Notes: generated by a model not told the origin, from the letters alone. Numbered from the stretch's first letter, positions 2,862 to 18,872 are shown. The stretch is 64,000 nucleotides of DNA from Methylocystis sp. (GCA_022843405.1 JALHNQ010000010.1:8957-72956), one strand, 5' to 3'. A program made the numbers and translations.

Positions 2862-3040
2862 GTTTGGATGCATTCGCAGCAAGGCGACGCAACACCATTC
2901 AAGACACGCGCAATTTATGGGGTCTGGCTCGACCTGGTATGCGGAGGCTCACATGCGTGTATGCTAGAGGAGGCAAAGGCTTGACAGCGAAGGAAGTCGG
3001 CGGCGCTGCGCGCCTGACGACTGAAACAGGGGAGCCCGCG

Positions 3041-3757
3041 ATGAAGCGTCCATCCACGGAATGCCCGTCGACGGCGAAATCGGCGGAAGCGCATGTTGCG
3101 GGACCGAAGGAATGTTCCGTGATCGCGGCCGCCCGGAAATTATTCCTTGAGCAGGGATTCGCCGAGACGAGCATGGATGCGATTGCGCGGGCTGCGTGTG
3201 TGTCGAAGGCGACGCTTTACGCTTATTTTCCGAGCAAGGAGGCTTTGTTCGCCCATTTGATCGAAGCGGAATGCCGCCTGAAAACCAGCAGGCTGCAGAT
3301 GCCGGATCTCGACATCGGCCTTGTCGAGACGCTTCGAAGCTTCGCCCGCCAATTTGTCGAGGTGTATATGACGCCGGAGTCGATGGCGTTCTTTCAGGCG
3401 ATATCCAGTGAGCGCATGCGCTTTCCGCAACTCTGCAGGCTCTTTTTTGAAAGCGGGCCGAAAAACGAACTCATGCGCGTCGCGGCGTTGCTCGAAGAGG
3501 CCAAAGCCCGCGGCTTTCTGACTTTCTCCGATGCGACCATAGCGGCGAACCATTTTTTGAGCCTCGTCCGAGGCGATCTGCCGCTCCACACGGCGCTCGG
3601 TCTCGAACCGAAGGCTGAGGCGTCGGTCGACGCGACGGTTGACGCTGGAATCGCCGTTTTTTTGAAGGCCTACGGAACGGTAGGGGCGCCAATTCCTTGG
3701 CACGAATTGTCGCAGAGGAATTGCGACGCAATCTCCCGGCAAGGCGAGAGGCATTAG
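3041..3757 (+). CDS. TetR/AcrR family transcriptional regulator
   Basis: HTH AARKLFLEQGFAETSMDAIARAACVSKATLYAYFPSKEALF. ATG 3041 follows a GGGGAG RBS. Divergent from the efflux genes. Confidence 0.93.
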   Translation: MKRPSTECPSTAKSAEAHVAGPKECSVIAAARKLFLEQGFAETSMDAIARAACVSKATLYAYFPSKEALFAHLIEAECRLKTSRLQMPDLDIGLVETLRSFARQFVEVYMTPESMAFFQAISSERMRFPQLCRLFFESGPKNELMRVAALLEEAKARGFLTFSDATIAANHFLSLVRGDLPLHTALGLEPKAEASVDATVDAGIAVFLKAYGTVGAPIPWHELSQRNCDAISRQGERH

Positions 3758-6681: not shown

Positions 6682-7349
6682 GACGCTTGGCCTCGGCGAC
6701 CTGTTGAACATCGAAAGCTGAGAAAATCGGATTTTTTCGTGAGCGCCGGATCGCTCTTGGCCGCTCATCTAGCATACCCCTTGTTCGAGGTATCGCAAGT
6801 GTAACGTCGCCGCTCAAAGCGACTATTGGGATCGCTGACGTGATCCCTCTTTGCTTCGGCCGCTTCAAGCCGCCACAGGATCAACCAATCCATTGGAAGT
6901 TTTTGAGATGCTCAATGGAGCCTGGCGGAACGCTCAACTTGGCGGGAAGCTGCGCCCGAATCAAATTCACGATTCGCTCAACAGCAGTCTCTGGTCCACC
7001 ACGCGCCGTTTCGATCCGGCTAACTCTACAGTCCTGCGGTCGAGTTGCAATCGCAGCGCTTCGAGCTCCTTTTGAGCATGCTCTATGACGGCGGACATCC
7101 ACTCGACTTGAGTCTCGGCCAAGCGCAGCATTGTCTCTGCGCGCTCAGCCCACAGCTCAGCGCGGCCCAAATCCTCCCTCAGGCGTCGGCGCCTCCTGGG
7201 CGCGCATTAGCGCATGGGCCGCCTGCTCCTCGAATGCTTTGATCGCCGCCGCTGTTCGAACACAAGATTTAGCGCGGCTCACGGGCAGGCTCATGCGTCG
7301 AACCATCGTTCTTGCGGATGGGTTCGTCCGCCGCCTGGTCAAAATCTGG

Positions 7350-8066
7350 CGCAGCACGACTTCTTTGTCGCCGATCGCGCGCTTGGTTCGAACGGCGCCG
7401 GCAATCTCGTCGACCTTTTTCGATAGCGGCTTTGTTCCCGGCAGGTGGGCATGCGCGACGTCGCAGGTGTCATCGATGTCGAGCATCACCGAAGACGGCG
7501 GCTTTTCGTAGGACGCCATCCATTGATCGACGAACGCAAAAGTGAAACGGATCACGTTGCGCAGCCCCCGCGTGTTCTCGAGGCGCAACAGCGTCGGTTG
7601 CGAGCACAGATCCTACCCCATGCAGGTCAGCGTCCGCAGGCGAGTTTGAAAGCCTGATCGAAGCACTGCGAGTCGAGATCGTCGGCGTCCTCGTAGCCGC
7701 GGGCAATTGCGAAAATGCGGGCGTGGATCATGTCGGCGAAGCTGAGCGCGATGTGCGACGGATTGCGGGCAGTCGGGAATGCGGCGCACGAGCCGTTCGG
7801 CGATCCCGAGCCGGCGCTCGGCCAGCGACAGAGGCATGACGCCGCCTTCCGAATTGATCCGACCGCGCCACCGAAGGCGCCGGTGATTTCTTGCGGGTGA
7901 CGGCGGGAAAGGAGAAGGCGACGGACGCATCGTCAAGCATGGCGGGCGTGGCGCGCGGATTTGGCGGACAAGATTGGCGTAGACGACCAAAGCTTATTCC
8001 CTATCAGCCTCTCACGCTACGCCCGCCAACCTCTCCCGCGACACGTCATGAATAGGATGAGCTAGG
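7350..8066 (-). pseudogene. Degenerate IS1380-family element (frameshifted, internally deleted transposase)
   Basis: Fragments in shifting frames: MLDDASVAFSFPAVTRKK, SEGGVMPLSLAERRLGIAERL, FADMIHARIFAIARGYEDADDLD, DLCSQPTL, MLDIDDTCD, LSKKVDEIAGAVRT. A probable end CCTAGCTCATCCTATTCATGA lies at 8046-8066. Confidence 0.8.
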
Positions 8067-8449
8067 TGTTTGGCTCCGGCACCTTAACGATGACAATAGC
8101 ATCGAAAGTGAAAACGCCAAGGAATTCAGTCGGGGGGATCGACGGTAGCGCTCCTCCGCTACCATGAACGATGTTTTATATTATATTTCTGTATGTTAGA
8201 AAAGTTTTCTCCTGTGCGGTCACACGCGATGGCGCGACGGAGCCGCTACCAGATGTGCAGAAGAGCAAAGCTTAGACGGCGAGCGGCGCGTTTGAACTTT
8301 TGAGTGTAAATGACCGTGTCGTTCAATAGATGGTCGAACGCTTCAACACTGATGACGTCGAAGCGCTTCTTCTCCGCAGCGCGTCTTGCCGCGCCAGTCA
8401 TTGGACGATCCCCGATCACCGATCTGTCAGTCGCGCTGGCGAAGCGCCG

Positions 8450-9886
8450 TCAATCGGCGACCGGCGTTGAATCGCTTTGGACGCCACGTCCGATCACGAT
8501 CTGGCCGACCGACCCTTCGACGTGAAACGCGAGGCCCGTCATTTTGGCGAAGAGGTCGATATCGCCGACGCCAATCGCGCAGGCGCCGATCTCCATCTCG
8601 GTCGCCATCAGATAGAGCGTCTGCATCAGCACGCCGACATGTTTTAGAACAAGCGCATAGGCGAAGCCGCTGTATTTCCATGACACGCGGCTAAAACGCG
8701 CCGCCATTGTGACGAGGACTTGCGGGACCCCCGGCGCGCCCATGGCGAATTGCGCGTCCTCCAGCATCGCGGCAAGCCAATGTTCACTCGTCTCGATCAG
8801 AACAAGAGCGTGGCGGTTGGCGTCGTAATGATAAAAGCCGCGCGCCAAACCCTCACATCTGTCGACGGCGAGATAGAGCTCCAATTCGTAGCTCGCGCCG
8901 CCGGACGGATAGGGACGAGGGGCGACCTCCAACTCCGGCCCTTCCTCGTCTTCGTCGGGCGATCGCTCCCGCGATATAATTCGCGCGGCGCCGCCGAGGA
9001 GCCGCGCGACCTCCGCCAGCGTGATCGGGCGCCGCTCATCGAAGGCGCGCGTCGAGCGCCGCCGTCTCAACAGTGAGGCAAAGGCCGAGGGCGGCGCCGT
9101 ATCAAGCGTCGTCAGGTCGATCGCCGGCCCTGGCCAACTCGGCCGTATCGCAGGCGGCGGCGCTGCGAGATGCGCGTGGGCGTAGAGCCCGCCGGTGGGA
9201 TTGGCGTGCCGTCCGTTGGTGCTGCGGGTATGGAACAGCAGATCGTGGAAGTCCCATAGAACGAGATCGCCGTCGCCTTCGGCCGCGCGCAGCCCTTGGT
9301 CGGCGTCGCGACCGGGCGCGAATAGAATCTGGCCGTCGAGGAGCAGCGCCAGCAGCTCGACGCCCGGAAAGTCCGCCGATTCACGAAGCTCTCTCACATT
9401 ACGCGCCGCCGACAGATGTGCGATCATTGCTGTGACGCTTGGGTCGCACAGTCGGAAAAGCGCACTCGCGCGCGGGGATTCGAGCACCAGGTCTGCGCCG
9501 CGCCGTCGCATATAGGCGAAGCGTGACAACGTCAGCGCGCGATCCTCGTCGATCTCGACCATCCGTGGCGCATAGTCGCGCATCTGCGGCTCGATGACGA
9601 TGAGATCGGGATCGCCCGGCGCGCGAGCCAGCCGATATTCGACGAGACCGTAAAGCGCCAGCCTTCGAACGAGTTCGCTTATCTCCGCGTCCGCATCCCC
9701 ATCGAACGCAACGCCGGTCTCGAAGTCGGCGGCGCGCGCTGTGACGTCGGCGCCGAACTTTCCGAACGCCACGGTTCGACCGTCGAAAATGGCTGAGAGG
9801 CCGCCCGCAGCGTTGGGCTCGAGCGTGATGCCAGGATTAAGTCGAGCGAAGAGCCGCGCCGGCGGTGGGGACGAATCGCTAAGCAA
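8450..9886 (-). CDS. SagB/ThcOx-family FMN-dependent azoline oxidase (RiPP dehydrogenase)
   Basis: RRRRSTRAF, RPYPSGGASYELELY, catalytic-type WKY (RVSWKYSGFAY) and GVLMQTLYLMAT. TTG start 1 nt after the YcaO stop. Confidence 0.92.
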   Translation of the reverse strand: MLSDSSPPPARLFARLNPGITLEPNAAGGLSAIFDGRTVAFGKFGADVTARAADFETGVAFDGDADAEISELVRRLALYGLVEYRLARAPGDPDLIVIEPQMRDYAPRMVEIDEDRALTLSRFAYMRRRGADLVLESPRASALFRLCDPSVTAMIAHLSAARNVRELRESADFPGVELLALLLDGQILFAPGRDADQGLRAAEGDGDLVLWDFHDLLFHTRSTNGRHANPTGGLYAHAHLAAPPPAIRPSWPGPAIDLTTLDTAPPSAFASLLRRRRSTRAFDERRPITLAEVARLLGGAARIISRERSPDEDEEGPELEVAPRPYPSGGASYELELYLAVDRCEGLARGFYHYDANRHALVLIETSEHWLAAMLEDAQFAMGAPGVPQVLVTMAARFSRVSWKYSGFAYALVLKHVGVLMQTLYLMATEMEIGACAIGVGDIDLFAKMTGLAFHVEGSVGQIVIGRGVQSDSTPVAD

Positions 9887-9887
9887 G

Positions 9888-12155
9888 TCAGGTGCGGGGA
9901 AACAATGGATTGAGATCGGCTTCCCGTACCGGCCGCTTGCGCAGACCTAACGCGACGGGAACGTCATAGAGGCGGCCGGGACCAAAGCGGCGATAGAAAT
10001 GCCGCAGCCCCGGAACGATCACTCGGACCACCGGCACGTCAATGTCGGGGCGCGTCTGATCGAGGACGAGGAAATCATATCCAGCCCGCGCGGCGAGCTT
10101 GACGCAGGCCAGAACCTGGTCACGGCCGTCGAGCTGGGCAAAGTTCTTGAACCGCGACCGCCCGAACGACGCTTTGCCCTGCGGCCGCAAATAGGCGTGC
10201 TTGCGCAAGGGCAAAGGGTCGCTTCCGTAATCGTCGTCTGGCCCGGGCGCAGGGCGGCCGCCGAGGCTCTCGATGGCAAGAAACTGGTTGAGCTCGGTCA
10301 TGGCGCGTAGCGTCGCGATTCGTGGATCGAAATGGGCGCCCGCCGCGACTTCGATATATTCCCGGCCGTCCTCGGTCCAATGGGCGACGGCGACGACGAC
10401 CGGAATGCCGAGATCGCTCGTTACGTCCAGCGCCCAGACGTCGCGGCCCATCCTGGCGAAGACGGCGCGGAGGTCGTTCACATAGCTGTCGCCGAGCTTG
10501 TCGAGATCGATCTCCGGACAACGCAACCGGTTGTACCACCAGATTGCATATGCATCACGCTCAACGAGTTCGAGGAAGCCTTGGATAATCGCTTCCTCGA
10601 TCGTATTGCCCGCCGCGCAACCGTTCGAATCAGCGCTGATCTCATTCGCGCAGCCGGACTCGTGGAAGAAATACAGAAGCCCGGTGGGAACGTATTTGAA
10701 GCCCTCGTCGCGCAGCGACCACACGGGCGACCATTCCGTCTCCGCGGCGGGATCGAAGCGCTGCGCGCCCTCGCCGCAGCCGCCGCTTTTTGCGCCCTGC
10801 TCATATTGCGCGTCGCTATAGTGCAAAATGTCGTTAGGCAGGATCGCCTCGCCCGCCGGGAAATCCGTATATCGCCGGACGGTCCTGATCTCGTCGCCCT
10901 GGAAAATCCCGCAGTAGCGCTCGATCGCCTCCATCAGCGCGCTTGCCTCGCCCTGTTCGGCGACGCTGCCCTTGCCATAGCTGTCGCCGCTCAGCCCGGC
11001 CTGAAGGGCGTCGACCGTTTCGGGGCGCGGCGAAAAATTGTGTCTGGCGACAAAGCTCGCGTCGAGCGGCTGTTGGCTCTTGATCCGATCAAGATGCGAT
11101 ACGACGCCGGTCAGCGGGCTGACATGCTTGCGATTGCGGGCAAGGGTGTCGCCCGGCGCGACTGATCGATAGCCCCCGCTCGTCACGACGCTCGCGCTGC
11201 CGGCATGCAGCGGGATGGGCGTGGGCGTTCGCGCGGGATCGCGCAGCTCGGGGTCGCCGCAGCTTGGGCATTGCGGCCGAGCCGGCACATAATGCCGTGC
11301 GACGGTCGAGCCCATCAGATCCAGGCTCACGATATGCTGGTGCAGATCGGTGCGGAAGCCGCTGGCGATCGCCTTGGCGATCTCCGCGGCGGCGAGGCCA
11401 GCGCCGCTCAGCCCGAGCGGATGGGCGCCGAGCGGCGAGACGGCGACGCAGCGCGCCTCCTTGCGGCCGAGGAACGCCTTGACCTGTCGGTTCCAGTTCA
11501 TCCGATCGGTGAGGCATCTCCAGCAGGCGCTCTTGCCAGGGCTGAAGATCGGGCCGACCAGCGGGAAAACGCCGGACGGCTGAACCAGCAGCCACTCCTG
11601 CTTTTCCTCGAGCCGCCGGCGGTTGAACTCCGCGAGCTGGCTTTCGAGATAATCGCCGACTAGGGCGACGATCAGATCGCCGCCGCGCTTCACGACCTTG
11701 ACGCCGAAAACGTCCAGCGCCTCCGCCAGCGCGCCCGCGCCGCCTATCCCGAGGGATTCGATCCGAACGGAGACCTTTTGCAGATTTTTTTCGGCGACGT
11801 CGGGCGGCAGGCCGAGACTGGCCCAATAGGCCGCCGCGATCCCATCGGATGCGGCCGCCGGGATGACGAAACGGCGATCAAGCAGGCGCTTGAACGCCTC
11901 GTCTATGGCGTCGACCGGAAACTCTGCGGAGAGCGCATCACGTATGGCGTGGGCGTCCTCTCCCGCGCCGATCCGCTCCGCCAGCGCGCAGTAGAGCGCG
12001 CCATGCAGAAAAAACTTTCTGTCCTCGGAATAAAGGCAGACAGCGTCAGGCGGCAGCACATAGACAGAAAAATTGGGCGAGAATCGAAGGGCGTCGCCAA
12101 ACGGCGCTTCTGGAACCTGCTTCCGCGAAAGCGATCCGGATGCTTCAACTGTCAT
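9888..12155 (-). CDS. Fused E1-like/RRE - YcaO cyclodehydratase (azoline-forming, C-D fusion)
   Basis: E1-like part with CWRC...CPSC Zn motifs and LVGPIF. YcaO motifs SYGKG, SALMEAIERY, DSNGCAAGN, ELVERDAYAIWW, VVRVIVPGL and a Pro-containing C-terminus LNPLFPRT. Confidence 0.95.
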   Translation of the reverse strand: MTVEASGSLSRKQVPEAPFGDALRFSPNFSVYVLPPDAVCLYSEDRKFFLHGALYCALAERIGAGEDAHAIRDALSAEFPVDAIDEAFKRLLDRRFVIPAAASDGIAAAYWASLGLPPDVAEKNLQKVSVRIESLGIGGAGALAEALDVFGVKVVKRGGDLIVALVGDYLESQLAEFNRRRLEEKQEWLLVQPSGVFPLVGPIFSPGKSACWRCLTDRMNWNRQVKAFLGRKEARCVAVSPLGAHPLGLSGAGLAAAEIAKAIASGFRTDLHQHIVSLDLMGSTVARHYVPARPQCPSCGDPELRDPARTPTPIPLHAGSASVVTSGGYRSVAPGDTLARNRKHVSPLTGVVSHLDRIKSQQPLDASFVARHNFSPRPETVDALQAGLSGDSYGKGSVAEQGEASALMEAIERYCGIFQGDEIRTVRRYTDFPAGEAILPNDILHYSDAQYEQGAKSGGCGEGAQRFDPAAETEWSPVWSLRDEGFKYVPTGLLYFFHESGCANEISADSNGCAAGNTIEEAIIQGFLELVERDAYAIWWYNRLRCPEIDLDKLGDSYVNDLRAVFARMGRDVWALDVTSDLGIPVVVAVAHWTEDGREYIEVAAGAHFDPRIATLRAMTELNQFLAIESLGGRPAPGPDDDYGSDPLPLRKHAYLRPQGKASFGRSRFKNFAQLDGRDQVLACVKLAARAGYDFLVLDQTRPDIDVPVVRVIVPGLRHFYRRFGPGRLYDVPVALGLRKRPVREADLNPLFPRT

Positions 12156-12243
12156 TTGGTTGTCGCGCGCTCCCCCGTCTTGTCGCGCCCAGCCGCGACA
12201 AGATTCGCTCGATCAGGAATCGGAGACAAGGCGCACGGGCGAC

Positions 12244-12299
12244 GTGGTGAAGCACTTCCGCACCACGCGACCGCCTCGGCCTGCGGCGCAGCCCGAGGC
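12244..12299 (-). promoter_or_regulatory. Two GC-rich hairpins between precursor and YcaO (possible mRNA stabiliser or attenuator)
   Basis: GTGGTG-AAGcaCTT-ccg-CACCAC (12244-12266) and GCCTCGG-c-CTGC-ggc-GCAG-c-CCGAGGC (12273-12299). No clear U-tract. Confidence 0.4.
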
Positions 12300-12337
12300 C
12301 TAACCCACCGCTCAGCCATTAAATGTGCGTCGGCGCG

Positions 12338-12682
12338 TCACCAGCAACCACGGCAGCCGCAGCCGCGACAGCCCCTGCAGCCGCACCCGCGGCACCCGCA
12401 GCCCCTACAGCCGCGGCATCCCCACCACCATGCGACCTGCTCGGTCTTCACGGCCGGGACTTCTTCGCGATCGAAAAGGCGGAATGAATTCAGCCCCACA
12501 TCGAACACTTCCTGTTCGCGGAGGTCGATTGTGCGCGTCCTGCTCGTTTCCGGCGTCGCTGCGGCGTCAGCAGGAGAGCTGTCCACGCAGGCGGCGCCCG
12601 CGAGTGACAAGGATACGCCCATCACGCCGAGCGCCTTTTTGCCTCGGCCTTTGCTCTGTGGGCTGTCCGATGAGCGCGCCAT
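12338..12682 (-). CDS. RiPP (linear azole-containing peptide) precursor, 114 aa, with a Gly-Cys/Arg repeat core
   Basis: GGAGG RBS 6 nt before ATG 12682. Ends ...EQVAWWWGCRGCRGCGCRGCGCRGCRGCGCRGCW. First gene of the operon with YcaO and SagB. Confidence 0.9.
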   Translation of the reverse strand: MARSSDSPQSKGRGKKALGVMGVSLSLAGAACVDSSPADAAATPETSRTRTIDLREQEVFDVGLNSFRLFDREEVPAVKTEQVAWWWGCRGCRGCGCRGCGCRGCRGCGCRGCW

Positions 12683-13176
12683 TAGAGTCCTCCCCAACGA
12701 TATTCAAAAACGCATCAGGGCAGATAATAGCGCTCATCTGGCGGCGGTCAATGCTCGCTCCAGGCTCAGCCCATATGAGACGGCTTACCTTGGCTGAGAG
12801 CTTGGGCATACTTTGCTAAGGTTTTTTCCGCCAAGCGCGTCGTGCGGCCTGTGGTGATTGAATCGATAAGCGAAGTCATAGGTGGCGTTGAGCTCGCATC
12901 GACAGGTTGATTGGGCGCGCTCGACGCAGCCGTTAACCCTGTGCGCGGACTGTGACGGACTGATGCGCCACGGTGAGGACGTTGCGCCCATCCGGTCGGA
13001 CTCCTTTCGTTGCGACACAGCATGAGCGCCGCCGCCATGCCTACCTCAACCGCATCATGGTCTTTCTTTGAGTTGCGTAGTGACGTCCTCGCCGCACGCA
13101 GCGCTTTTTTGGCGATGATGACTGATTTCGGGTCGGCATCTTGCGCGCGCGCTCACGAGAGGCCGACGTGTTTCAG

Positions 13177-17018: not shown

Positions 17019-18872
17019 ATGTCAAAGCCGTTGCGGTCGGCGACGAGAATTGGGGCGATCAATCCTAAGATGGCGAATACGAAAACCCAGCCGTCACAAG
17101 CGCGAAGGATTGCGGCCGAAAGCCTCTCGTCGCACCTGAGATTGACGCTCGACGCAGTGAGAGGGTCCCGCCAGCGGTCCGCGCTGATCTGGCTTGGCGC
17201 CGGTCTTGCGGTCATCATCGCCGCAACGGCCTATGGGCAGATTCGGCTCAATGCCTGGAACAAGCCCTTTTATGACGCGCTCGCCCGCAAGGATCTCGCC
17301 GGCTTCGGCGATCAGCTCATCGTCTTCGCGATCATCGCCGGCGCGCTGCTCATCCTCAACGTCACGCAGACTTGGCTCGCGAACCTGACTAAGCTGAAAC
17401 TGCGGGAGTCGTTGACGCGAGACTTATTCGATCAGTGGCTAACGCCGCATCGCAGCTTCCGCATCGCCGGCATGGGCGAAATCGGCGTCAATCCCGATCA
17501 GCGCATACATGCCGACGCGCAACATCTCGCCGAGCTGTCGACGGATCTCGGCGTCGGCCTGCTACAGGCGACATTGCTGCTCATAAGCTTCATCGGCGTG
17601 CTGTGGGCCTTATCCGCGGGCGTGACCTTCGACATTTTCGGAACAAGGATGATCATTCCAGGCTACATGGTATGGAGCGCGCTGCTCTATGCCAGCATCG
17701 CTTCCTTCGGCAGCTGGCGCGTCGGCCGGCCGCTCGTCGAACTCGGCGCCGAGCGTTACGGGCGCGAATCCGACCTGCGCTTTGCGTTGATGCATGTCAA
17801 TGAGCATGTCGAGGCGATCGCCGTCTGCCGCGGCGAAGCCATCGAGGAAAACGGTCTGCATCAGGAGTTTGACCGCCTGCTGACGGTGTTGCGTCGGCTC
17901 GTGACAGCGACGACCAATCTGACCTGGGTCACCGCCGGATACGGCTGGTTCACCATCGTCGCGCCGATCATCGTCGCCACGCCCGCCTATTTCGCCGGAA
18001 ATCTCACATTTGGCGGCTTGCTGATGGCGGCCGGCGGCTTTTCGCAGGTGCAGCAATCGCTTCGCTGGTTTGTCGACAATGCCGGCGTCATCGCAGATTG
18101 GCGCGCGACCCTGCATCGCGTGGCGGGTTTTCGCGAGGCGCTGCTTGAACTCGACAAAGCCGTTCCAGATGCGCGCCGCATTGCTTTCGAAGAAACAGGA
18201 AATGATCTGCTCGTTCTCGACGATCTGCGGATCCTCTCCTATGCCGGCCACACGACCTTGAGTGAATCCCACGTCGAAATTGCGCCCGGGGAACACGTGC
18301 TGATCGTCGGCGAACGCAAATCGGGCAAAACTCGCTTGTTTCAAACGATCGCCGGTTTGTGGGCGGCTGGAAGCGGCAAGGTCCGCACGCCGCCTGCTGA
18401 GCGCGTTCTCTTCGTTCCCATGCGCGCTTACCTTCCAGACCTTTCTCTGCGAAGCTCGCTTTCTTATCCTTTGCCGCCAACGAGCTTTCCAGACGAAGCC
18501 TATGTGGCCGCCCTGACGCGGCTTGATCTTGGACATTTCGTTCCCTGGCTCGATCGCGTCGCGCGATGGGAACAGGAGCTGACTGATATTGAGCAGCAGG
18601 AACTGGCTTTTACCAGAATCCTGCTTCACAAGCCGCGCTTCGTCATCGTCGATGAGGCGCTCGACTCTCTCTCGTCCCACGCCCGCCAGCTTCTTTTCGC
18701 CGCGCTCGAAAAGGAACTCACGACGACGGCGTTTATCCATATTGGCGGACCAAAGAGCGGTGACCGCTTTTTCCGGCGCGTTCTGCATCTGACTCTGGAC
18801 GCGTCGCGCCAATCGGCCGAGGCGCAACCACGTCAACCGCCGGAAACACTGGCGCCGCAGGATGCGCCTTAG
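17019..18872 (+). CDS. Fused ABC transporter permease/ATPase, YddA/BclA/ABCD (SbmA-BacA-like TMD) family
   Basis: LNAWNKPFYDAL, VNPDQRIHAD, ESDLRFALMHVNEHVEAIA (EAA-like), Walker A GERKSGKT and Walker B VIVDEA. Confidence 0.88.
   Translation: MSKPLRSATRIGAINPKMANTKTQPSQARRIAAESLSSHLRLTLDAVRGSRQRSALIWLGAGLAVIIAATAYGQIRLNAWNKPFYDALARKDLAGFGDQLIVFAIIAGALLILNVTQTWLANLTKLKLRESLTRDLFDQWLTPHRSFRIAGMGEIGVNPDQRIHADAQHLAELSTDLGVGLLQATLLLISFIGVLWALSAGVTFDIFGTRMIIPGYMVWSALLYASIASFGSWRVGRPLVELGAERYGRESDLRFALMHVNEHVEAIAVCRGEAIEENGLHQEFDRLLTVLRRLVTATTNLTWVTAGYGWFTIVAPIIVATPAYFAGNLTFGGLLMAAGGFSQVQQSLRWFVDNAGVIADWRATLHRVAGFREALLELDKAVPDARRIAFEETGNDLLVLDDLRILSYAGHTTLSESHVEIAPGEHVLIVGERKSGKTRLFQTIAGLWAAGSGKVRTPPAERVLFVPMRAYLPDLSLRSSLSYPLPPTSFPDEAYVAALTRLDLGHFVPWLDRVARWEQELTDIEQQELAFTRILLHKPRFVIVDEALDSLSSHARQLLFAALEKELTTTAFIHIGGPKSGDRFFRRVLHLTLDASRQSAEAQPRQPPETLAPQDAP

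Follow-up and report, generated by a model that had tools for sequence, protein, structure and literature searches.

A putative azole RiPP precursor family of Methylocystis and Bradyrhizobium with a signal-peptide-like N-terminus ahead of a separate, presumed recognition block

The window, the whole 64,000-nt stretch of Methylocystis sp. DNA that was analysed (GCA_022843405.1, JALHNQ010000010.1:8957-72956), contains on its minus strand an ORF (12338-12682) that translates into a 114-residue peptide made up of five parts. This precursor peptide gene comprises 114 codons and a TAA stop at 12338-12340, and translation of 12338-12697 on the same strand gives MARSSDSPQSKGRGKKALGVMGVSLSLAGAACVDSSPADAAATPETSRTRTIDLREQEVFDVGLNSFRLFDREEVPAVKTEQVAWWWGCRGCRGCGCRGCGCRGCRGCGCRGCW up to the stop. 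It is the sole precursor copy in the genome, which likewise has one such YcaO. The start codon is the ATG at 12682, preceded at a spacing of 6 nt by a Shine-Dalgarno sequence read from the DNA (GGGGAGGA; 12688-12695, minus strand); the TTG at 12697, given as the start in an ORF listing, was rejected because it overlaps the Shine-Dalgarno sequence. Further upstream is a sigma-70-like promoter, TTGACC-16-TATTAT (12724-12751, minus strand; 10/12 matches), within a block shared with M. rosea that ends at 12756. Met1 is retained in 132 of 134 family members, and in the N-terminal third synonymous differences far outnumber non-synonymous ones (residues 2-16, dN/dS 0.32; residues 17-33, 0.18; 14 Methylocystis-type genes), which indicates that this third is translated. 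The initial annotation, which was silent on the minus-strand placement of the gene, had marked 12431-12682, and this span corresponds exactly to residues 1-84, i.e. the leader; the strings that it had quoted all occur in the translation, and the Cys that it had pointed out is indeed residue 32.

Downstream of the precursor gene, across an intergenic region (12156-12337, minus strand) in which folding predicts stable hairpins (196 nt folded, 12150-12345: -94.6 kcal/mol, z = -2.06) and with no T-tract terminator found between precursor and enzyme gene, lie two enzyme genes on the same strand. The first encodes a fused RRE/E1-like/YcaO cyclodehydratase of 755 aa (9888-12155; TIGR03882, TIGR03604, PF02624), which aligns with LynD (4v1t) over residues 23-751, N-terminal peptide-binding domain included (E = 6.4e-137). 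The second encodes a SagB-type FMN dehydrogenase of 478 aa with a ThcOx N-terminal domain (8450-9886; TIGR03605, PF22767, PF00881), which matches CyaGox (5lq4) with E = 2.6e-53. Heterocyclase and oxidase are thus full-length relatives of LynD/TruD and CyaGox. Both require cytoplasmic cofactors, ATP and FMN respectively, and neither has a signal-like N-terminus. The position of the ORF directly upstream of the fused E1-like/YcaO protein and the SagB dehydrogenase bears out the earlier assignment of a RiPP precursor, and three marks of a TOMM/LAP precursor were seen: a YcaO with an E1-like/RRE partner, a SagB dehydrogenase and a Cys-rich C-terminal core.

We clustered all ORFs within 10 kb of 80 related loci, which were kept from the 208 found in a scan of species genomes and come from Methylocystis, Bradyrhizobium, Pseudolabrys and other Xanthobacteraceae. 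Precursor, YcaO and SagB genes follow one another in this order, adjacent and co-oriented, at 44 of these loci. Neither a conserved ABC/MFS exporter nor a leader protease emerged from the clustering of these 10-kb surroundings, the 44 linked clusters included, in keeping with the earlier suggestion that the peptide does without a dedicated transporter. Recurrent neighbours were an amidase (Methylocystis-type clusters), a tandem VOC/bleomycin-resistance-like protein, a carbamoyltransferase (16 loci), OpgC and housekeeping genes; in one genome, NikR and TonB-receptor genes neighbour the cluster. The tandem VOC/bleomycin-resistance-like protein, which is cytoplasmic, occurs in 30 of 31 Bradyrhizobium-type clusters at two different positions; these clusters have it in place of a periplasmic enzyme and lack the amidase, and the role of the product could accordingly be intracellular there. 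Two candidate exporters in the window were rejected: RND components (3-2778) with a TetR gene (2864-3757), both separated from the cluster by IS elements, and an SbmA/BacA-like ABC gene (17019-18872), 4.3 kb off and outside the block shared with M. rosea. In one Bradyrhizobium genome, a paralogous system of LynD type comes with an S41 peptidase of its own, and its precursor lacks a signal-like N-terminus.

The peptide, encoded throughout on the minus strand, runs from a basic N-terminus through 17 uncharged residues and a variable spacer to the block IDLREQEVFDVGLNSFRLFDRE and then a core of (R)GC repeats. Residues 1-16 (MARSSDSPQSKGRGKK; 12635-12682) form a basic n-region with a computed net charge of +4. 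Residues 17-33 (ALGVMGVSLSLAGAACV; 12584-12634) form an uncharged h-region that ends in small residues and contains the invariant G19, the near-invariant G22 and Cys32; its best 19-residue Kyte-Doolittle mean is 1.5, the usual cut-off for a transmembrane helix being 1.6, a hydropathy that looks signal-like rather than anchor-like. Residues 34-53 (DSSPADAAATPETSRTRTID; 12524-12583) are the variable spacer, here of net charge 0 and with an alternative A-D-A↓A site, and are followed by the conserved acidic-aromatic block, the presumed heterocyclase recognition sequence (residues 54-73, LREQEVFDVGLNSFRLFDRE; 12464-12523). A variable linker, EVPAVKTEQVA (residues 74-84; 12431-12463; entropy ~2.5 bits, dN/dS 0.42), joins the block to the core (residues 85-114, WWWGCRGCRGCGCRGCGCRGCRGCGCRGCW; 12341-12430), whose 30 residues, the last of the peptide, include 8 Arg and 11 Cys, each Cys preceded by Gly. 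An AlphaFold2 model of the precursor (40-sequence alignment) was disordered (pLDDT 52) and uninformative either way.

This five-part layout recurs in all 134 non-redundant relatives, from Methylocystis, Bradyrhizobium and Xanthobacteraceae. A protein search returned 57 relatives, the named ones from Methylocystis, and together with the genome scan it confirmed the suggestion of the initial annotation that similar precursors of the type LxEEEIxDVSLATFYVFDKE occur in Bradyrhizobium-like genomes: they are present in Bradyrhizobium and are homologous to the peptide described here. Of the 80 loci, 36 are orphan copies with the same leader and other Cys/Gly-rich tails. Since 10 of the 12 orphan genomes tested encode an orthologous YcaO elsewhere (the two exceptions being MAGs), the orphans are probably extra substrates encoded apart from the enzyme. 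When a leader-only profile was searched against 1.84 billion representative proteins, it retrieved 1,487 clusters at E ≤ 1e-3, of which 858 reached E ≤ 1e-10, with the leader domain N-terminal in most of the best 150 of the 1,487. The tails are Cys/Gly-rich or correspond to that repeat in a shifted frame; low-Cys tails of metagenomic relatives look like frame-shifted GGC/TGC repeat, and the idea that they represent other cargo was rejected. No model in Pfam or NCBIfam covers the leader, and TIGR03601 (heterocycloanthracin) gives weak matches, via the core, in 12 of 40 relatives (best E = 1.7e-5), all far from a confident assignment. The cluster is patchily distributed, being present in 7 of the 151 genomes from the host's family and in two of the five sampled from its genus.

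Within the leader the acidic-aromatic block is the least variable part (~0.8 bit per column over the 134 non-redundant members). E58 is invariant, L54, E56, D61, L64, F67, F70, D71 and E73 are each retained in 87% of members or more, and D61, F67 and E73 are near-invariant in the family. Among the 14 Methylocystis-type genes, purifying selection is strongest on the block (dN/dS 0.047) and on the core (0.035), compared with 0.32 for the n-region, 0.18 for the h-region, 0.28 for the spacer and 0.42 for the linker. Moreover, between linked and orphan copies, which are bound to share one enzyme, the block is nearly unchanged and the h-regions differ. Because the block is constrained and is kept in orphans whose genomes encode YcaO elsewhere, its retention fits a recognition sequence for the LynD-like RRE domain of the heterocyclase. 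The initial annotation had proposed just this role, with the RRE/E1 domain as the binding partner, and conservation supports it, the block being the best-conserved part of the leader and present in all 36 orphan copies. The block presumably resembles the acidic cyanobactin leader motif bound by LynD; a literature search on that motif found nothing, and a profile search of the leader against the PDB, LynD-bound peptides included, gave a single match at chance level (E = 0.38).

The N-terminus, with its basic n-region (net +4) followed by 17 uncharged residues, has a Sec-type layout. We put it to a home-made rule-based test: the net charge had to be positive; 14-32 uncharged residues had to follow, with a Kyte-Doolittle mean over 10 residues of 1.4 or more; the residues at -3 and -1 had to be small; and the five residues that come next had to be free of K/R. 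This test is passed by the window peptide and by 119 of the 134 relatives (89%), compared with 118 of 3,127 (3.8%) high-GC3 likely coding ORFs of the same genome, so that by these rules the signal-like pattern exceeds chance. In all 134 members the n-region is positively charged (net +1 to +10, median +6) and variable in sequence (~1.9 bits), and the uncharged stretch spans 14-31 residues. At positions 31 and 33, 84% of the family have small residues (ASA in 43 members, ACA in 41), 1.5% have K/R no more than five residues from position 33, and the spacer, variable in length and sequence (~2.5 bits), is neutral or negative in 98.5%. The window peptide reads A-C-V at residues 31-33, with Val at -1 of the conserved site, so cleavage here would need one of the alternative sites, AGA↓A or ADA↓A. 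A Tat signal on the precursor was considered and rejected: the n-region has KGRGKK, without a twin-arginine motif of the form S/T-R-R-x-F-L-K, and matches neither TIGR01409 nor PF10518. The h-region motif LGxxGxSLSLAG (G19 invariant, G22 in 132 of 134) is more conserved than a generic signal needs, which hints at an additional specific partner. The modified core, rigid and with a charge of +8 that opposes the membrane potential, may also be a poor Sec substrate.

Information on where the peptide goes also comes from a fourth gene. In 16 of 16 other Methylocystis-type clusters, SagB is followed by an amidase (PF01425, NF004816), and a twin-arginine signal, for example TRRDFLLKAG or ARRDVLIGAG, opens all 16 amidases; amidase-bearing clusters in M. 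rosea and strain ATCC 49242 lie in unrelated genomic surroundings. A Tat-exported, periplasmic fourth enzyme in the sister clusters argues well, if indirectly, for arrival of the peptide in the periplasm. The features of the N-terminus, their family-wide conservation and the Tat amidase of the sister clusters all point to routing via Sec, and Sec export of the peptide appears plausible, if unproven, from these sequences.

In the window itself, a remnant of the Tat-signal amidase gene is left (8376-8401, minus strand), with an ATG at 8401 and the codons for M-T-G-A-A-R-R, after which homology to M. rosea ends; the identity between the two clusters (88% at the DNA level) is limited to 8382-12756. 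A fragment of a DDE transposase (7157-7588, minus strand; PF13701, E = 9e-7, 50 of 435 profile positions) lies by the break point, and no orthologous amidase was found elsewhere in the genome. Since amidase homology stops, a transposase adjoins and the genome holds no other such amidase, the cluster is a truncated, three-gene version in which the precursor and both core enzymes are intact.

Loss of the amidase and the IS debris alongside mean that the cluster may be non-functional here. That it is in this genome a decaying remnant which yields no finished product is a reading compatible with the others and a real, if minority, possibility: the fourth gene is cut after about eight codons beside a transposase fragment, its function is not supplied by an orthologue elsewhere in the genome, and the cluster is patchy within the family of the host (7/151 genomes). 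Against decay, the precursor, YcaO and SagB genes are intact, with promoter and Shine-Dalgarno sequence, the 88% DNA identity to M. rosea comes without any frame disruption, and Bradyrhizobium-type clusters work without any amidase.

Anatomy, conservation, gene context and enzyme homology are established. The reading that we favour, at a probability of about 0.6, is that this gene specifies a precursor to a linear polythiazole peptide and that the three-part leader of the precursor directs modification in the cytoplasm, export through Sec and finishing in the periplasm. Residues 54-73 would dock on the N-terminal RRE domain of the LynD-like heterocyclase, and heterocyclase and ThcOx-like oxidase would then, in the cytoplasm, turn the Gly-Cys units of the core into thiazolines and subsequently thiazoles, as the enzyme families suggest, with an expected mass change of -20 Da per Cys and up to -220 Da in all. 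Residues 1-33 would serve as a Sec-type signal peptide. Because the peptide has 114 residues and its h-region is moderately hydrophobic, targeting would probably be post-translational, which would leave time for modification before export. The linear, unfolded product of modification would cross into the periplasm by way of SecA/SecYEG; there, signal peptidase I would probably cut near residues 30-42, and the rest of the leader would be removed, or the peptide otherwise finished, the candidate enzyme in sister clusters being the twin-arginine-exported amidase. In this genome, with the amidase truncated, the pathway may end at a leader-bearing periplasmic peptide, or be in decay.

The N-terminus could instead be a second docking element, contacting the RRE-like domains of the ThcOx-type oxidase or mediating self-association, with a product that stays in the cytoplasm or leaves through an unlinked transporter. 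The glycines G19 and G22 and the fixed LGxxGxSLSLAG motif, which go beyond a generic signal, would fit such a role, as would the ThcOx N-terminal domain of the oxidase, the cytoplasmic VOC/bleomycin-resistance-like protein of the Bradyrhizobium-type clusters and the SbmA/BacA-type ABC transporter 4.3 kb away in the window. We nonetheless consider docking unlikely. The charge, hydrophobic stretch and small residues of a signal are all there, and the segment is N-terminal in the best-scoring matches, likely gene-call extensions aside; the n-region conserves charge and not sequence; the h-region is held more loosely than the acidic block (dN/dS 0.18 versus 0.047) and diverges more than the block between linked and orphan copies that share one enzyme; and in other genomes the cluster has no SbmA/BacA-like gene close by.

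An uncleaved signal anchor in an N-in/C-out orientation, which would display the polythiazole tail in the periplasm on a membrane-tethered peptide, seems improbable. It would draw on the strong charge dipole across the segment, on the uncharged stretches of 23-31 residues in Bradyrhizobium-type members, on a conserved small-residue face (G19, G22, S26, G29/A30, A33) that could pack against another helix and on the Val at -1 of the conserved site in the window peptide. In the Methylocystis clade, however, the stretch mostly measures 17 residues and never exceeds 23, its best 19-residue hydropathy of 1.5 is weak for a stable helix, and A-x-A ends the stretch in 84% of members.

The initial annotation had also entertained a lipid anchor at Cys32. 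The window peptide presumably satisfies a loose PROSITE-type lipobox pattern, and a Cys occurs at this position in 58 of 134 members from two clades (LAGAAC in Methylocystis, ASGAC in Bradyrhizobium orphans). RiPPs processed by signal peptidase II have precedent (PMC13056109), and in clades that keep Cys32 the product could be lipid-anchored. A lipoprotein signal with Cys32 as +1 (LAGAA↓C), giving a diacylglycerol-anchored polythiazole peptide like the DAG-RiPPs, is nevertheless very unlikely and at best a possibility for some clades, since position -3 is Gly or Ser (Gly in the window peptide) and not Leu, Val or Ile, the lipoprotein candidates of the genome have the boxes LAG, LAA, VAG, LSG and LSA, with GAA in none that is plausible and otherwise in one obvious false positive, and Ser, Tyr, Ala, Phe or Val replaces the Cys in 57% of members, close Methylocystis relatives included.

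Taken over the family, Sec export with prior modification would make these Hyphomicrobiales peptides (~1,500 clusters at 50% identity) the first class of azole (YcaO) RiPPs to leave through the general Sec pathway, an internal recognition sequence holding the peptide on the LynD-like heterocyclase until the thiazoles form and finishing taking place in the periplasm, by the Tat-exported amidase in Methylocystis; to this wider claim we assign about even odds. The periplasm may then also be where the product acts, for example by binding metals or the envelope, and not by being secreted as an antibiotic. If the claim is true, the export logic of MNIO peptides extends to the best-studied heterocycle chemistry, that of YcaO, and raises the kinetic question of how cytoplasmic modification is completed before Sec takes the peptide. 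The family, which Pfam and NCBIfam leave uncovered and to which we draw attention here, is tractable, with a minimal cluster of three or four genes and hundreds of natural variants, among them precursors encoded apart from the enzymes, and its hosts, methanotrophs and rhizobia with a high metal demand, lend it ecological interest.

By the usual account, azole-containing RiPPs such as microcin B17, plantazolicin, cyanobactins and phazolicin depend on dedicated exporters and leader proteases, and Sec-signal RiPPs were, to our knowledge, first established in 2024 and for MNIO enzymes only. Microcin B17, also a linear azole peptide from a Gram-negative bacterium, has a core rich in Gly and Cys; its short leader lacks a signal peptide and is removed by TldD/E, its export is through the dedicated McbEF, and its McbB, McbC and McbD are separate proteins. 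The heterocycloanthracin/sonorensin group (TIGR03601) likewise has a repetitive Cys/Gly core, a fused cyclodehydratase and a SagB protein. Unlike the Bacillus heterocycloanthracin system, the heterocyclase described here keeps its own N-terminal domain and its substrate has an unrelated leader with a signal-like N-terminus; TIGR03601 did not match the window peptide, and no ocin-ThiF-like F protein was found among the neighbours. Searches of the literature, including those on YcaO or linear azole peptides combined with a signal peptide, on YcaO in Methylocystis and Bradyrhizobium and on amidase-signature enzymes in RiPPs, found no description of the family and no comparable export logic for YcaO peptides.

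The enzymes are closest to those of cyanobactins: the heterocyclase, of the LynD/TruD/PatD type, aligns end to end with LynD, leader-binding domain included, the oxidase matches CyaGox and has the ThcOx domain, and an acidic recognition block appears to be shared with cyanobactin leaders. In contrast to cyanobactins, the peptides here come from alphaproteobacteria, lack macrocyclisation signals and a multi-cassette core, and start like a signal peptide, a segment absent from cyanobactin precursors; no subtilisin-like protease of the PatA/PatG type, such as brings about N-to-C macrocyclisation in cyanobactins, was found among the conserved neighbours or annotated contexts, and the precursor has no flanking cleavage motifs.

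In its export logic the family instead recalls the MNIO RiPPs. The bufferin study presents these peptides as the earliest known case of RiPPs with Sec signals (PMC11626156), and ChrA, MelA1 and the lipobox peptide DybA are further heterocycle-bearing RiPPs with Sec or lipoprotein signals (PMC13056109). As in BufA1/2, ChrA, MelA1 and DybA, the precursor here is Cys-rich and has a signal-like segment at its start, and no dedicated transporter or protease accompanies it; in those systems Cys residues become heterocycles in the cytoplasm ahead of export (PMC11626156, PMC13056109), as we propose for this one. The two differ in chemistry, with YcaO and SagB predicted to make thiazoles here and an MNIO/DUF2063 pair making thiooxazoles in bufferins; no MNIO (DUF692) or DUF2063-type enzyme occurs in the contexts surveyed, YcaO and SagB being the only modifying neighbours. 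They also differ in the substrate, predicted to be disordered here and a small folded protein in bufferins, and in the separate internal recognition sequence that lies here between signal and core; bufferin modification required neither the signal peptide nor a separate leader in overexpression tests (PMC11626156). The family would thus represent an azole RiPP built on cyanobactin-type enzymes and combined with a Sec-signal logic, plausible but as yet unproven for this peptide, that has so far been known only from MNIO peptides.

Folding of the intergenic region between the precursor gene and the heterocyclase gene (window 12156-12337, minus strand) revealed stable hairpins (-94.6 kcal/mol, z = -2.06 for the 196 nt folded, 12150-12345), with no T tract; they may determine how abundant the precursor transcript is relative to the enzyme transcript. 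Immediately after SagB, we identified the remnant of a Tat-signal amidase gene (window 8376-8401, minus strand) comprising about eight initial codons (M-T-G-A-A-R-R), beyond which alignment to the intact Methylocystis rosea gene ends; a transposase fragment (window 7157-7588) lies beside this break point.

Among related loci in other genomes (L-numbers), a cytoplasmic tandem VOC/glyoxalase/bleomycin-resistance-like protein is encoded next to 30 of the 31 Bradyrhizobium/Xanthobacteraceae-type clusters (L019-L080; for example, L073:8844-9797, minus strand). Its gene lies upstream in divergent orientation in 19 of them and follows SagB convergently in the other 11, and the protein is a candidate for a role in immunity or tailoring. 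A NodU/CmcH-type carbamoyltransferase, which may be a tailoring enzyme, adjoins the cluster on either side in 16 loci from both clades (as in L082:7219-8898 and L073:14324-16147, the latter on the minus strand). In M. rosea (CP034086.1; L084:5634-8649), the one genome where this was seen, divergently transcribed genes for a NikR-type regulator and for a TonB-dependent receptor lie immediately upstream of the precursor, which hints at a metal connection.

Precursor copies without adjoining YcaO and SagB genes include a Bradyrhizobium type, 126-127 aa long, which has a GCGAGCGCSFGCAYW core together with a Pro/Lys-rich tail and is present in L025, L027, L030, L031, L040-L044, L050, L058, L060, L061, L067, L070, L072 and L081, at around position 10000 in most. 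This orphan is carried on a DNA block of 0.44-0.76 kb (mostly 0.6-0.76 kb) with 88-98% identity between species, around which no common flanks were found across these loci, and of which B. erythrophlei GAS478 has two copies. The block looks like a small mobile cassette. Elsewhere, in L017, L026, L045 and many metagenome protein representatives (P0064-P0105), the core appears out of frame, as RLRRLRRL tails, AAAEAAA tails or split ORFs; these forms could stem from errors in sequencing the GGC/TGC repeat or from real slippage.

Bradyrhizobium sp. Tv2a-2 has a second LynD-like system (L085:1643-8053), whose heterocyclase is a paralogue (37% identity) with SagB alongside, and which also encodes an S41 peptidase and a 352-aa precursor built of repeated GTTFTAGSAFTSPTMGTIGTQGSIGAAGGSSSQLSG cassettes and devoid of any signal-like N-terminus. 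Lastly, 4.3 kb from the precursor gene, the window encodes a 617-aa ABC transporter with an SbmA/BacA-like membrane domain (17019-18872, plus strand; PF05992, PF06472, PF00005). The block that the window has in common with M. rosea does not include this gene, so its link to the precursor is probably accidental; in other bacteria, SbmA/BacA-type transporters import azole peptides and bleomycin.
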